Below, piece after piece: positions 6,678 through 11,708 of a stretch of 61,846 nt of DNA (positions are counted from its first letter, which is position 1; every line of letters begins with the position of its first letter). The position numbers and the translations under genes were made by a program. Source of the DNA: an uncultured Prevotella sp. (GTDB lineage Bacteria > Bacillota_I > Bacilli_A > RFN20 > CAG-288); contig CAVHUN010000066.1 in assembly GCA_963639175.1 (NCBI GenBank), positions 1-61,846 of the forward strand, given 5' to 3'. The notes under the pieces were generated by a model. That model made no database searches, was not told where the DNA came from, and saw only the letters and a list, made by a program, of their open reading frames with translations.

Positions 6678-7757
6678 ATGAAAAAGAGTTTATCATTATT
6701 AACTGTCTTATTTAGTTTATCTTTATGTTCAAGTTGTTCACCTTCTTCAAACACCTCTAGTGTTGATTCAAGTAGTTCAGCTCAAACAAAAATCAATGTT
6801 TATACACGTGATGGAGAATCAGGTACAAGAGAAGCCTTTACAGAAAAATTAGGAATTTCAGAAGCTAAAAATAAAAACGATTTATTAGTAAGTGGGGCTA
6901 GCCAAGTTACTTCTAATGGCGATATGATGACAAAAATTAAAGCTGATACAAAAGGAATTGGTTATGCTTCTTTAGATGGAATTACTCCTACAAGTGGAGT
7001 TAAAGCCTTAAAAGTTGAAGGAGTTGCTCCTAGTGAAGATTCAGTCTTAGATGGCACATATAAATTACAAAGAAACTTTGTCTATGCAATAAGTAAAACT
7101 AAAGGAACTAGATCTGATGCAAAATGGGCATTAATTCAATCTTATGTTGATTTTATGACTAAAACAAAAGAAGGAATCGCTGCAATTAAAGCTGATGGTG
7201 GAATTGTAAAAAGTGAAGTTAGTAAAGCTGCAGTAAGCTATGCCGATTTAATTTCAAGTGAAAATAAACCAAGTTGGGTTACTACATTAAATTTAGGAAG
7301 TGATGGTAAAATACCTGCTTCATCAACTGCTTTAAATGAAAAGATCAACTTTGTTGGTTCTACTTCAGTTGAAAAAATTTCAAAAAGTGTTGGTACTGCT
7401 TGGGCAAGTTATATAGGCTTTTCTACTGATGGAGATCATCAATATCATAATCACCAAGGTTCAGGAACAGCTGCAACTAGCTTAGAAAGTGGTGAAGGCG
7501 ATATTGGTTTTACTAGTAGAGATTTAAAAGATGCAGAAAAAGAAAAAGTCGGTACTAATGGGTTAATTTGTTTAGATGCAGTTGCTACTATTGTTAATAG
7601 TTCTAATAATTATGTCTCTGACATAACTATTAAACAAATTAGAGATATCTATTTTAACCAATCTAAGATTGATTCTTATAAAGGTAAAGATGCTAATGGA
7701 AATAGTGTAGATAGCTTAGAAACTCAAATCAGTTATTGGGAAGAACTTAGTAAATAA
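6678..7757 (+). CDS. pstS: phosphate-binding lipoprotein PstS, apparently circularly permuted
   Basis: Signal peptide plus lipobox (LSLCSSC). PstS motifs are present in swapped order. RDGESGTREAF...IGYASL...GTYKLQR comes first. VGSTS...QGSGTAAT...DIGFTSRDLK...IKQIRDIY follows. It is the first gene of the pstSCAB-phoU operon. Confidence 0.8.
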   Translation: MKKSLSLLTVLFSLSLCSSCSPSSNTSSVDSSSSAQTKINVYTRDGESGTREAFTEKLGISEAKNKNDLLVSGASQVTSNGDMMTKIKADTKGIGYASLDGITPTSGVKALKVEGVAPSEDSVLDGTYKLQRNFVYAISKTKGTRSDAKWALIQSYVDFMTKTKEGIAAIKADGGIVKSEVSKAAVSYADLISSENKPSWVTTLNLGSDGKIPASSTALNEKINFVGSTSVEKISKSVGTAWASYIGFSTDGDHQYHNHQGSGTAATSLESGEGDIGFTSRDLKDAEKEKVGTNGLICLDAVATIVNSSNNYVSDITIKQIRDIYFNQSKIDSYKGKDANGNSVDSLETQISYWEELSK

Positions 7758-7833: not shown

Positions 7834-8883
7834 ATGGACGTAAATATAAATAAAATTGAACAATCTGCTTCTAGAAAGCACATTATAGATAACATTGTTA
7901 AATTCATTTTCTTTTTTATCGCTTTAATTTGTGCTTCTAGTATTATTTTTATAGCAGTTTTCATTTTAATAAAAGGTTTAACTCCCTTTTTTAAGACATA
8001 TACTTCATCTTCAGGAGAACAAATTAAAGAATCATTTAGCGTTTTCTTTTTTGAAACTACTTGGTCACTTGGTGATCAATTTGGTGTTTGTTATTTAATT
8101 ATTAACACTTTATTTGCTACTTTTTGTTCTTTAATTATTTCTATTCCAGTTTCAATTTTAACTGCTCTTTTAATTGTTCAAATTGCCCCTAAATATATTA
8201 GTATTATCCTTCAAGCAGGAATTGAATTACTCTCTTCAATTCCAAGTGTAATTTACGGTTTATTTGGAGCTGGATATATTACAAAGATTGTCTTAGCAAT
8301 TTCAAATGCTTTTAATTATTCATCATTTGGAGGAGCTAGTTTATTATCTGGGGTTATTGTTTTAGCAATTATGTCAATTCCAACTATGACTTTGATGTCA
8401 ATTGGAGCTATTAAAGGAGTAGATAAAAATCTAATTCAAGCTAGTTTAGCTTTAGGAGCAAGTAAAACCCAAACCAATTTTAAAATAGTTATTAAAGCAG
8501 CTAGTAGTGGAATATTTGCAGGAATTATTTTAGGAGTAGGAAGAGCACTTGGAGAAGCTAGCGCAATTCAAATGGTTATTGGAAATGCTACTAGTGGAAT
8601 TAGCTTTGATTTATTAGCACCTAGTTCTACTTTAACTACTAATATGTTAATGGGCATGGGTGAAGCAGTTATCAATTCACTTGGATATGATATTAGATTT
8701 ACTGCTGGCATTTTATTAATCTTAATTATCTTTATTATTGATGTAATCTTAAATTCTATTAAAAATAGCATTTATTATAAGCAAACTGGCAAAGGTAAAA
8801 TTGGACTATTTAATAAATTAATTATTCAAATAAAAAGTAATTTCACTAAACCAAAAATTGAAAGTTTAAAACAAGGTGAATAA
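7834..8883 (+). CDS. pstC: phosphate ABC transporter permease PstC
   Basis: Polytopic permease with an EAA-type loop (ASLALGASKTQTNFKIV). Confidence 0.85.
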   Translation: MDVNINKIEQSASRKHIIDNIVKFIFFFIALICASSIIFIAVFILIKGLTPFFKTYTSSSGEQIKESFSVFFFETTWSLGDQFGVCYLIINTLFATFCSLIISIPVSILTALLIVQIAPKYISIILQAGIELLSSIPSVIYGLFGAGYITKIVLAISNAFNYSSFGGASLLSGVIVLAIMSIPTMTLMSIGAIKGVDKNLIQASLALGASKTQTNFKIVIKAASSGIFAGIILGVGRALGEASAIQMVIGNATSGISFDLLAPSSTLTTNMLMGMGEAVINSLGYDIRFTAGILLILIIFIIDVILNSIKNSIYYKQTGKGKIGLFNKLIIQIKSNFTKPKIESLKQGE

Positions 8884-8884
8884 T

Positions 8885-10228
8885 ATGGAAAATATAGATA
8901 ATAATTATAAGCAAGAATATCTAAAAAAGTTAGAAAAGACTAAAGAAAGAAGAAATAAAAGAAGAATTATTTTTGATGTAATTAGAAATAGTCTTACTTA
9001 TATTGCTTCATTTTTTTCAATAGTAGTCTTATTAGGAGTTATTTCATATTGTATTATTAATGGTAGTTCTACTCTTTCTATGGAATTTATTACTAGTCCA
9101 ACTATTGAATCTAATGAAAATTACATCATGAGTAAAGATGATATTTTAATTAGTGATTCTACTTTTAATTACAATCCTAGTAAGGATGAATATTTCTCTT
9201 CTAAATGGGGTGTATCATTTAAAGATTCTACTAATTCAGATGGTTCTTATAAACTAGTTGTTTCTTATATTGATACTTCTTCCCCATTTTTAAAGCTTTA
9301 TAATTCTAGAAATTTAAATCAAGATGAACTTTATTTAACTCATATTAATAATGGTGATTCAATAAAAAGTCTAATTGGAGTTGATAAAGATAATGAAGAT
9401 GTTGAAATATATGCTAGAAATGGCGCTGAAGTTTTTGCAACTAAATTAAATAAATGCGTATTAATTACTCAAGCCGTTGTTCAAATTTCTCGCACAGGAA
9501 TTATTGGTCCATTATTATCTACTCTTTTATTTATTTTATTTGCTTTATTAATTAGCTTACCTTTAGGAATTGGAGGAGCTATATATTTAGGAATATATGC
9601 TAAAAATAATTTTATTACTAGAGCAATAAGATCATTAATAGATATGATAAGTGGCATTCCTTCAATTATATTTGGTTTAGCTGGGGCTATTATATTTATT
9701 CCAATCTTTGGTGGTACTGGTTCAATTATTTCTGGTTCATTTACTTTAGCAATTATGGTACTTCCTACCTTAATTAAAAATATTGAAGAATCAATTAAAT
9801 TAATTCCTACTAGTTTAACTCACGCATCAATCGCTTTAGGAGCTAGTCAAACTCAAACAGTATTTAAAATAATTATTCCCAATTCAATTAAAGGTATATT
9901 AACTGGTAGCTTACTTTCAATAGGAAGAATAATCGGAGAATCTTCAGCATTAGTATTTGCTTGTGGAGTTGGAATTATTAATTCCCCTAATTTAAATAGT
10001 GGAGCAGCTAGTTTAGCAGTCTATATTTGGAAAATCATGCAAGTGGAAAATCCAAATTATCAAGCTGCTAGTGCTACTGCCTTATTAATATTAATTATTG
10101 TCTTAATATTAAATATTTCAGTTAAATTCATCGCCTATAAATGTGATAAGTTCACACCAAAGAAAAAATCTAAATTAATGACAAATATTAAAAATATATT
10201 TAAAAAGAAAGAAATAGTTAAGGAGTAA
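8885..10228 (+). CDS. pstA: phosphate ABC transporter permease PstA with an enlarged extracytoplasmic loop
   Basis: EAA loop [20 protein letters not shown] prefer the ATG at 8885, which has AAGGTG 6 nt upstream, over the GTG at 8876 used by the ORF track. Confidence 0.85.
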
Positions 10229-10230
10229 AT

Positions 10231-11040
10231 ATGGATAATTTCAACAATATAATTGAGCAAGAACAACAACTAGATTCATTTGAAAAAGATGAAGATATTA
10301 TCTTTCAAGCTAAAAATCTAAATTTATACTATGATACAAAACACGCTTTAAAAGATATCAATATTAAAATATTTAAAAATAAAGTCACTGCCTTTATTGG
10401 ACCATCTGGATGTGGTAAATCAACATTTTTAAGATGTTTTAATAGAATGAATGATTTAATTGATGGATGTAAAATTGATGGTGATCTATTATTAAATGGA
10501 CAAGATATCAATAAAATTAATCCAATATTATTAAGAACTCAAGTAGGAATGGTCTTCCAACAACCTAATCCATTCCCTATGTCAATTAAAGACAATATTA
10601 CATATGGTCCTAAATGCCAAGGAATTAAAGATAAAAAATATCTAAATATGTTAGTAGAAGAATCTTTAAAAGAAGGAGCCTTATATGAAGAAGTTAAAGA
10701 TAGACTAAAAGAATCAGGTATGGCACTTTCAGGAGGTCAACAACAAAGACTATGTATTGCTAGATGTGTTGCTATGCGACCTGATGTTATCTTAATGGAT
10801 GAACCAACTTCGGCTTTAGATCCTATCGCTACAAAAAAAATTGAAGACTTAATAAAAAAATTAAAAGAAAAATACACCATAATAATAGTCACTCATAACA
10901 TGCAACAAGCAACTAGAGTTTCAGATTATACTGCCTTTTTCATGCTAGGAGAAATAGTTGAATATGGTAAAACAGAACAAATATTCTCTAGACCTAAAAA
11001 CAAAAAGACAGAAGATTATATTACTGGTAGATTCTCTTAA
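10231..11040 (+). CDS. pstB: phosphate ABC transporter ATPase PstB
   Basis: Walker [10 protein letters not shown], signature [13 protein letters not shown] and Walker [12 protein letters not shown]. Confidence 0.95.
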
Positions 11041-11063
11041 TATTAGAAAGGACAATTTAAATT

Positions 11064-11708
11064 ATGCAAAACAATGAAGAAATTAATATCTTAAAACAAG
11101 ATGTTTTAAAAATGTACAAGGATGTAAAAACAAACTTAGAACAAGCCTTTGACTGTTTATTAAAATTTGATTCAAATAAAGAATACACCTTAATTGATGA
11201 TACTAAAATTGATGCTCAAGAAAGAAAAATAGAACAAAAATGTCTACACTTAATGCTAACAGAAAGACTATTTGCTTATGAAATTAGATTTGTCCCAGGA
11301 GTTATGTGTTTAGTTCAAGATTTAGAAAGACTAGGAGATCACGCCCAAGATATTCAACATTTTGCCCTTAAATTAAAACAAGAAAACATCTCTAGCTGGA
11401 TAAAACTTAAAAAATTAATATCATTTGTATTTGAAATGGTCGAAAACGCTATAAAAGCCTTTGATACATCTGATGCAGAACTAGCAAAAAAAGTCATAAG
11501 TGATGATGACCATGTTGATCAAGTGTATGAATTAATCTTAAAAGAATTAATTGAAAAAGATCAAGAACATATAATTACATCTAGTTATGCTTTATATACA
11601 ACATTAATAGATAAATATATAGAAAGAATAGCAGATCACGCAACTAACATTGCCGAATGGTCTATATTTATTATCCTAGGCTATTATAAAGACGCACAAA
11701 TAATTTAA
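11064..11708 (+). CDS. phoU: phosphate signalling regulator PhoU
   Basis: Two PhoU repeats carry LGDHAQDI and IADHATNIAEW. It is the last gene of the pst operon. Confidence 0.9.
   Translation: MQNNEEINILKQDVLKMYKDVKTNLEQAFDCLLKFDSNKEYTLIDDTKIDAQERKIEQKCLHLMLTERLFAYEIRFVPGVMCLVQDLERLGDHAQDIQHFALKLKQENISSWIKLKKLISFVFEMVENAIKAFDTSDAELAKKVISDDDHVDQVYELILKELIEKDQEHIITSSYALYTTLIDKYIERIADHATNIAEWSIFIILGYYKDAQII

Follow-up and report, generated by a model that had tools for sequence, protein, structure and literature searches.

The natural origin of circular permutations has mostly had to be deduced from a small number of old and isolated examples. Textbook examples such as the DNA methyltransferases and the saposin/swaposin pair are explained by permutation by duplication, in which an in-frame tandem duplication is followed by the establishment of new ends, and doubled forms are expected as functional intermediates under that model (PMC3320104). 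Permutants have also been described among substrate-binding proteins. TpMglB-2 (Tp0684) of Treponema pallidum is a circularly permuted type I glucose-binding lipoprotein that has kept ligand binding, and permutants like it occur chiefly in spirochaetes and Gram-positive gut bacteria, among their tethered lipoproteins (PMC4990184). The glycine-betaine-binding proteins OpuAC (2B4L) and ProX are likewise related by circular permutation, as also described for ModA and CysB (PMC2395249). Here we describe pstS, a gene of the PstS phosphate-binding protein family on a contig of 61,846 nucleotides from an uncultured Prevotella sp. (GTDB lineage Bacteria; Bacillota_I; Bacilli_A; RFN20; CAG-288; assembly GCA_963639175.1, contig CAVHUN010000066.1); this whole stretch is referred to as the window, and it is contig C66 of a draft genome of 77 contigs (1.36 Mb; completeness 91.8%). 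An earlier note had read this PstS as circularly permuted, with the canonical C-terminal half first, and had attributed the arrangement to a tandem duplication followed by loss of both outer halves. The window gene is by itself an ordinary member of an under-recognised family, and it is the behaviour of the family that is the interesting result.

We divided PstS into modules A, T (a pair of tail helices) and B, such that canonical PstS reads B-A-T and the window protein reads A-T-B. A six-frame search of the genome with the PF12849 profile returned exactly two matches, in swapped order: nucleotides 7323-7652 matched profile positions 5-116, and nucleotides 6774-7160 matched positions 127-264. 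At the protein level, the PF12849 match (64.5 bits, above the cut-off of 27) fell into two stretches, with residues 216-325 aligned to profile positions 5-116 of 267, and the best stretch for TIGR02136 placed residues 35-174 on profile positions 160-291 of 295. The TIGR02136 score of 104.8 bits fell short of the curated cut-off of 206.6, with no colinear full-length match and the other half found downstream, because the chain is permuted and a colinear model sees only half of the protein. Profile-profile alignment (hhalign) of 27 permuted against 13 canonical proteins paired residues 33-172 with canonical positions 164-291 of 297, tail helices included (probability 99.9, E = 8e-36), and hidden Markov models (HMMs) of the individual modules, run on the stop-to-stop frame, located A at 46-144, T at 157-210 and B at 229-338. 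The two non-colinear HMM matches are those that the earlier note had proposed to look for, and the motifs and residue ranges it quoted were found within a few residues of where it had placed them.

Solved structures gave the same picture. In a sequence search, the canonical PstS structures 4Q8R, 4GD5 and 1TWY were matched as two swapped pieces, and 4H1X (Streptococcus pneumoniae SP_2084, "PstS 2", a structural-genomics entry) was matched colinearly (phmmer E = 1.3e-19; query residues 32-136 to chain residues 4-108, and 181-327 to 114-256). 4H1X therefore has the same A-T-B chain order as the window protein, and the earlier description of Streptococcus PstS as canonical does not hold for all of these proteins, SP_2084 being permuted. 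An AlphaFold 2 (AF2) model built from the 27-sequence alignment had a predicted local distance difference test score (pLDDT) of 89.6 and a predicted template modelling score (pTM) of 0.83. Searched with Foldseek against the PDB, this model found 4H1X as its only strong colinear match (E = 1.7e-21, target-normalised TM-score 0.85). The runner-up was a set of OpuAC structures (E of about 1e-5), suggesting that their chain order is similar to that of the window PstS, and no canonical PstS appeared in the top 50, as is expected of an aligner that depends on chain order. HMM, profile-profile and structural evidence are thus concordant and confirm that the window PstS is a true circular permutant of a type II binding protein. 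Read from its N-terminus, the chain consists of a lipid anchor and Ser tether, the strand with the Arg/Ser-Gly-Thr phosphate loop (canonical position ~150-160), the canonical C-terminal helices, a structured connector of about 40 residues and, last, the canonical first strand (GSTS) through to a Trp-containing loop that forms the C-terminal end.

The A-T-B order is widespread and not unique to the window gene, and its structure has already been solved (4H1X). Module HMMs identified it in 48 of 139 first-round proteins. The window's order was represented by 401 genomes, of which 153 matched, most of them as a single colinear row and therefore A-T-B; this arrangement is the commonest form in the order, with over 100 genomes carrying it. 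The same 153 genomes include at least 12 with B upstream of A-T, and two with T-B upstream of A, one in the window's genus (G004) and one in its family (G101). Two separate A-T-B pstS genes were observed on different contigs (C24 and C80) of another genome of the window's genus (G008); the window genome has one. A profile search of 1.84 billion representatives returned 12,940 matches at E ≤ 1e-3 and 594 at E ≤ 1e-30. Of the best 150 matches, 144 were new representatives: 93 A-T-B, 8 T-B-A and 11 B-A-T proteins, the remainder being multi-copy forms or fragments. Source labels of family members were Acholeplasmataceae, Haploplasma axanthum, Izemoplasmatales, Anaeroplasma, Erysipelotrichaceae and unclassified Bacilli, and a scan of named genomes with the single window protein yielded one locus, in "Bacillales bacterium UBA6449" (41% identity). 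The window gene therefore belongs to a large permuted PstS lineage that has been structurally sampled yet remains undescribed.

We assessed how the registers are distributed over phylogeny using trees for which all sequences were first rotated into one register. The main A-T-B clade (100% support) has T-B-A and B-A-T proteins nested inside it. On the careful tree, the approximately unbiased (AU) test rejected monophyly of all B-A-T proteins (p = 2.6e-7) and of the two T-B-A proteins (p = 1.4e-5), and the well-supported branches of a 118-row tree require T-B-A to form at least four groups and the nested B-A-T proteins to form several. T-B-A thus arose at least twice according to the AU test, and at least four times according to the larger tree. 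A line of evidence that does not depend on the trees comes from the nested B-A-T proteins P0010, P0151, P0162, P0172, P0179, P0341 and P0355, which carry a C-terminal tail of 20-25 residues. The tail shares homology with the connector that is specific to A-T-B, as present in their A-T-B sisters; in canonical PstS the chain ends about 8 residues past the tail helices. This connector "scar" shows that they reverted to B-A-T from an A-T-B ancestor. In relatives of the window gene, all three registers sit at the head of pstC-pstA-pstB-phoU, and tblastn around pstS of every register recovered no leftover PstS modules.

The most recent change of register was found between P0004 (T-B-A) and P0005 (A-T-B), which are 85% identical once rotated. 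Loci L031 and L033 share the gene order DUF4186-pstS-pstCAB-phoU followed by a response regulator and a histidine kinase (RR-HK), their flanks are 97.3-97.5% identical, and the 314-nt A module of pstS is 5' in one locus and 3' in the other. Junction sequences are unique to each allele, and a second sequencing run contained the T-B-A allele at 100% identity across 1,983 nt; the rearrangement junctions of the two alleles contained no informative repeats. The relocated A module is 91.7% identical between the alleles, compared with 95.3% for the T-B block (p = 0.04; against the flanks, p = 1.6e-6). This greater divergence fits, and does not prove, descent of the moved module from the second copy of a putative doubled intermediate.

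Doubled and tripled forms are present in the family. The top four matches among the 1.84 billion representatives were fused A-T-B/A-T-B lipoproteins (P0121-P0124, 593-642 aa), and further searching added 24 more A-T-B doubles and one triple of 905 aa, bringing the A-T-B doubles to 28 (plus P0152). A double of 591 aa from cultured Haploplasma axanthum heads a pst-phoU-RR-HK operon, and B-A-T multi-copy forms comprised 12 doubles and one triple. In each double the two copies are mutual closest relatives, at 57-98% identity, implying that duplication took place many times and that some doubles are old and have been maintained. P0193 (878 aa) and P0134 (789 aa) contain three canonical PstS repeats each, P0193 with an additional unrelated C-terminal region of about 280 aa. 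P0291 (518 aa, 26 member sequences) has an A-T-B PstS in frame with a PhoU domain, as though pstCAB had been deleted, and may be a chimeric contig. A seemingly 1.5-copy intermediate (A-B-A-T), P0240, proved to be an N-terminally truncated B-A-T double.

The window order would have arisen by an in-frame tandem duplication of pstS followed by loss of the outer parts. By this route B-A-T/B-A-T would give A-T-B, and A-T-B/A-T-B would give T-B-A or B-A-T; within the family the process has run repeatedly in this clade of low-GC Bacilli/Mollicutes-like bacteria, A-T-B having given rise to doubles and triples, at least twice to T-B-A and several times to B-A-T again. Permutation by duplication, as the earlier note had proposed, is supported indirectly by the doubles and triples of the family and by the lack of free-standing halves in it. 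The same order could also be reached if an ancestral pstS had split into two genes that were re-joined in reverse order, and database proteins with A-T alone or T-B alone do exist. However, these are fragments, which end in the next module, have no signal peptide or are frameshifted; adjacent half-genes occurred in none of the genomes searched, and fused doubles and triples are common. We therefore regard fission and fusion as very unlikely, and duplication with outer loss as the better explanation of the window order.

On balance, we think it probable that re-permutation is still going on in this PstS clade, making it a natural hot spot where doubles and triples, with trimming of their ends, shift the termini among three surface sites, the registers stay functional and one switch is recent (flanks 97% identical). 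Several points weigh against the overall explanation of the window gene and its family. The large trees were quick or FastTree searches on the rotated sequences, and the AF2 model of the T-B-A protein P0004, built from a six-sequence alignment, was too poor to use (pLDDT 61.7). The AU test gave p = 0.073 on one versus two origins of A-T-B in the main clade and the 4H1X group; in the trees the 4H1X group and the window's clade are separate, and a shared origin of their permutation is neither shown nor rejected. A survey of related genomes for the same arrangement or for duplication intermediates, as the earlier note had suggested, yielded the former widely, and doubles and triples in the family, but no doubled or half-trimmed intermediate in the window's subclade or for P0004/P0005, so that the duplication route there is inferred from other subclades. 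A search for alleles between P0004 and P0005 recovered none. P0290 (L038 4607-6419; CP076021.1, Mycoplasmatota bacterium) is an A-T-B/A-T-B double with a poly-A frameshift in the first A module, which divides it into a signal-peptide fragment of 123 aa and a T-B-A-T-B ORF (open reading frame) of 472 aa; the break may be a homopolymer sequencing error, a pseudogene mutation or a site of slippage. Similarly, the T-B-A group P0144, P0311, P0326 and P0331 has a C-terminal stub of about 20 aa (e.g. DYDAENGDVEVDAAIIDKFEL) with a hydrophobic pattern like the start of a T helix. It may be the vestige of a second T copy, which is only suggestive.

With respect to function, the window gene was the only PstS-family gene detected in the genome by the six-frame PF12849 search, and it heads an intact pstC-pstA-pstB-phoU operon (ORFs 7834-11708). 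Residues R44, S48, G49, G227, T229, S230, G261, S262, S280 and R281 are invariant in the 27 permuted homologues, and T50 is nearly so. We take the GSTS, GSG, SR and R...SGT motifs to be those of the Escherichia coli PstS ligands T10, S38, R135 and S139-T141, an equivalence that is assumed and not computed. The ortholog P0002, from another sample (locus L040; 86% DNA identity over the locus, with the same neighbours), differs from the window pstS by 0.48 synonymous (dS) and 0.08 non-synonymous (dN) substitutions per site, and the resulting dN/dS of 0.17 indicates purifying selection. Independent assemblies hold proteins 98% and 90% identical to the window PstS. If the fold and phosphate site are unchanged, inorganic phosphate (Pi) would be bound in the cleft between the lobes and handed to PstC/PstA, and Pi binding would be expected on that ground. 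From these features we predict that the window PstS very likely works as a phosphate binder. The earlier note's points on retained ligand motifs, on the operon and on a likely functional type II permutant therefore stand, given the single PF12849 gene, the intact operon, the AF2 model and the dN/dS.

It is very unlikely, in our judgement, that the protein is permuted yet binds another oxyanion or is a decaying or moonlighting surface lipoprotein. TIGR02136 and TIGR04505 scores below their curated cut-offs would fit such a reading, as would the 40-residue connector and the 25-residue insertion, both missing from 4H1X. Yet the low scores follow from colinear models that cover half of the protein, the ligand motifs are invariant under a low dN/dS, and no other candidate binding protein is available to the intact pstCAB-phoU. 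An artefact, whether a misassembled tandem pstS pair in a 77-contig draft or cross-matching of the two lobes (which share a similar alpha/beta architecture in type II binding proteins), is effectively refuted. Independent assemblies whose proteins are 98%, 90% or less identical repeat both the chain order and the synteny, which excludes misassembly. A-T-B is also present in a crystal structure and in over 100 genomes of the taxonomic order, and the two profile matches fall at specific coordinates (5-116 and 127-264), with the lobe-specific motifs GSTS and R...SGT each pairing with its own counterpart. We are accordingly fairly confident that this gene encodes the cell's single PstCAB phosphate-binding lipoprotein, a circular permutant of canonical PstS whose order arose by duplication and outer loss.

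The features of the locus are collected in Table 1. G+C content across the window is 23-31%. The pstS ORF (6678..7757, + strand) encodes a 359-aa lipoprotein with a signal peptide, a lipobox, a Ser-rich tether and a PstS-like body. Cys20 is an invariant column in the alignment of the 27 permuted homologues, Cys17 is an alternative lipidation site, and residues 1-32 have pLDDT below 50 in the AF2 model. Module A contains INVYTRDGESGTR, the strand INVYTRD, the ligand loop R44/S48-G49-T50, SNGDMM, GIGYASL and YKLQRNF, and the helices of module T occupy residues 147-162 and 164-172 in the model. The connector is modelled confidently (pLDDT 93-97) and is a segment not present at canonical PstS C-termini. 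Module B contains VGSTS, HQGSGTA, DIGFTSRD, IKQIRDIYF and ...YWEEL. It also has a lineage-specific insertion of about 25 aa, NQSKIDSYKGKDANGNSVDSLETQIS, before Trp354 (window 7659-7727, residues ~328-350), which is common to the window's subclade (P0002-P0010) and occurs neither in 4H1X nor in most other A-T-B proteins. PstA is enlarged in this lineage: the window protein has 450 aa, those of L031 (3001-4623) and L033 (8312-9931) have 539-540 aa, and those of L038 and L039 (L039 8686-9897) have 403-409 aa.

Table 1. Parts of the permuted PstS and the genes downstream of it, in window coordinates.
Feature	Residues or length	Coordinates	Strand	Basis
Signal peptide and lipobox	residues 1-20	6678..6737	+	translation
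Flexible Ser-rich tether, SPSSNTSSVDSSSSA	residues 21-35	6738..6782	+	sequence; low-confidence and unstructured in model
Module A, second half of canonical PstS	residues 36-141	6783..7100	+	TIGR02136, PF12849, hhalign, module HMM
Module T, ALIQSYVDFM...GGI, two helices closing canonical PstS	residues 147-176	7116..7205	+	hhalign to canonical C-terminus
Connector, ancestral C-terminus to ancestral N-terminus	residues 177-216	7206..7325	+	helical in model; WVTTLNLG motif
Module B, first half of canonical PstS	residues 217-359	7326..7754	+	PF12849 positions 5-116; 4GD5 residues 37-145; alignment
pstS stop codon		7755..7757	+	
pstC, permease	349 aa	7834..8883	+	ORF list; downstream of every PstS register in relatives
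pstA, permease, enlarged loop past first transmembrane helix	450 aa	8876..10228	+	
pstB, ATPase	269 aa	10231..11040	+	
phoU	214 aa	11064..11708	+	

What appears to be new is that switching among three registers has been repeated, in part very recently, and that doubles and triples persist. A single essential, operon-fixed gene here offers the starting order, doubles and triples, three registers, directional scars and a strain-level switch, and with the full series in one gene each step is open to dating and testing. If the hot-spot reading is true, this would be the most complete natural series yet for the permutation-by-duplication model, and re-permutation may alter the point at which the lipid tether is attached relative to the two lobes of the binding protein. 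Colinear models of the TIGR02136 type under-score permuted PstS, which therefore receive the generic label "substrate-binding domain-containing protein". Tractable organisms (S. pneumoniae and Haploplasma axanthum) are among those with permuted and doubled forms, and the natural cut sites and connectors could serve as guides to engineering phosphate biosensors from PstS. Our literature search found no paper on PstS and circular permutation, citing 4H1X, or on tandem PstS.

Among known systems, the pneumococcal protein 4H1X is closest in chain order, although its identity to the window protein is only about 24%, and the window protein adds the Ser tether, the connector of about 40 residues (short in 4H1X) and the insertion of about 25 residues. 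SP_2084 is presumably part of the operon adjoining pnpRS. The Pst systems of the pneumococcus have been genetically characterised (PMC4913102). Canonical PstS (4GD5 and 4Q8R of Clostridium perfringens, 1TWY of Vibrio cholerae, and that of E. coli) shares its motifs and its place at the operon head with the window PstS, and probably also its two-lobe fold and phosphate site. The difference lies in the order, as the window protein begins near canonical residues 150-160 and the ancestral termini are joined by the connector. TpMglB-2 is of type I (cluster B) and has another ligand, and for it one permuted order has been described, with no doubles and no re-permutation. OpuAC and ProX are, like the window PstS, type II binding proteins related by permutation; however, they represent distant families (<24% identity) in which the permutation was detected structurally only, without evidence of recent or repeated events. 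In comparison with the textbook cases, PstS singles in three registers, doubles and triples coexist in one orthologous, operon-fixed gene, and in one case the register has changed between loci with flanks that are 97% identical.
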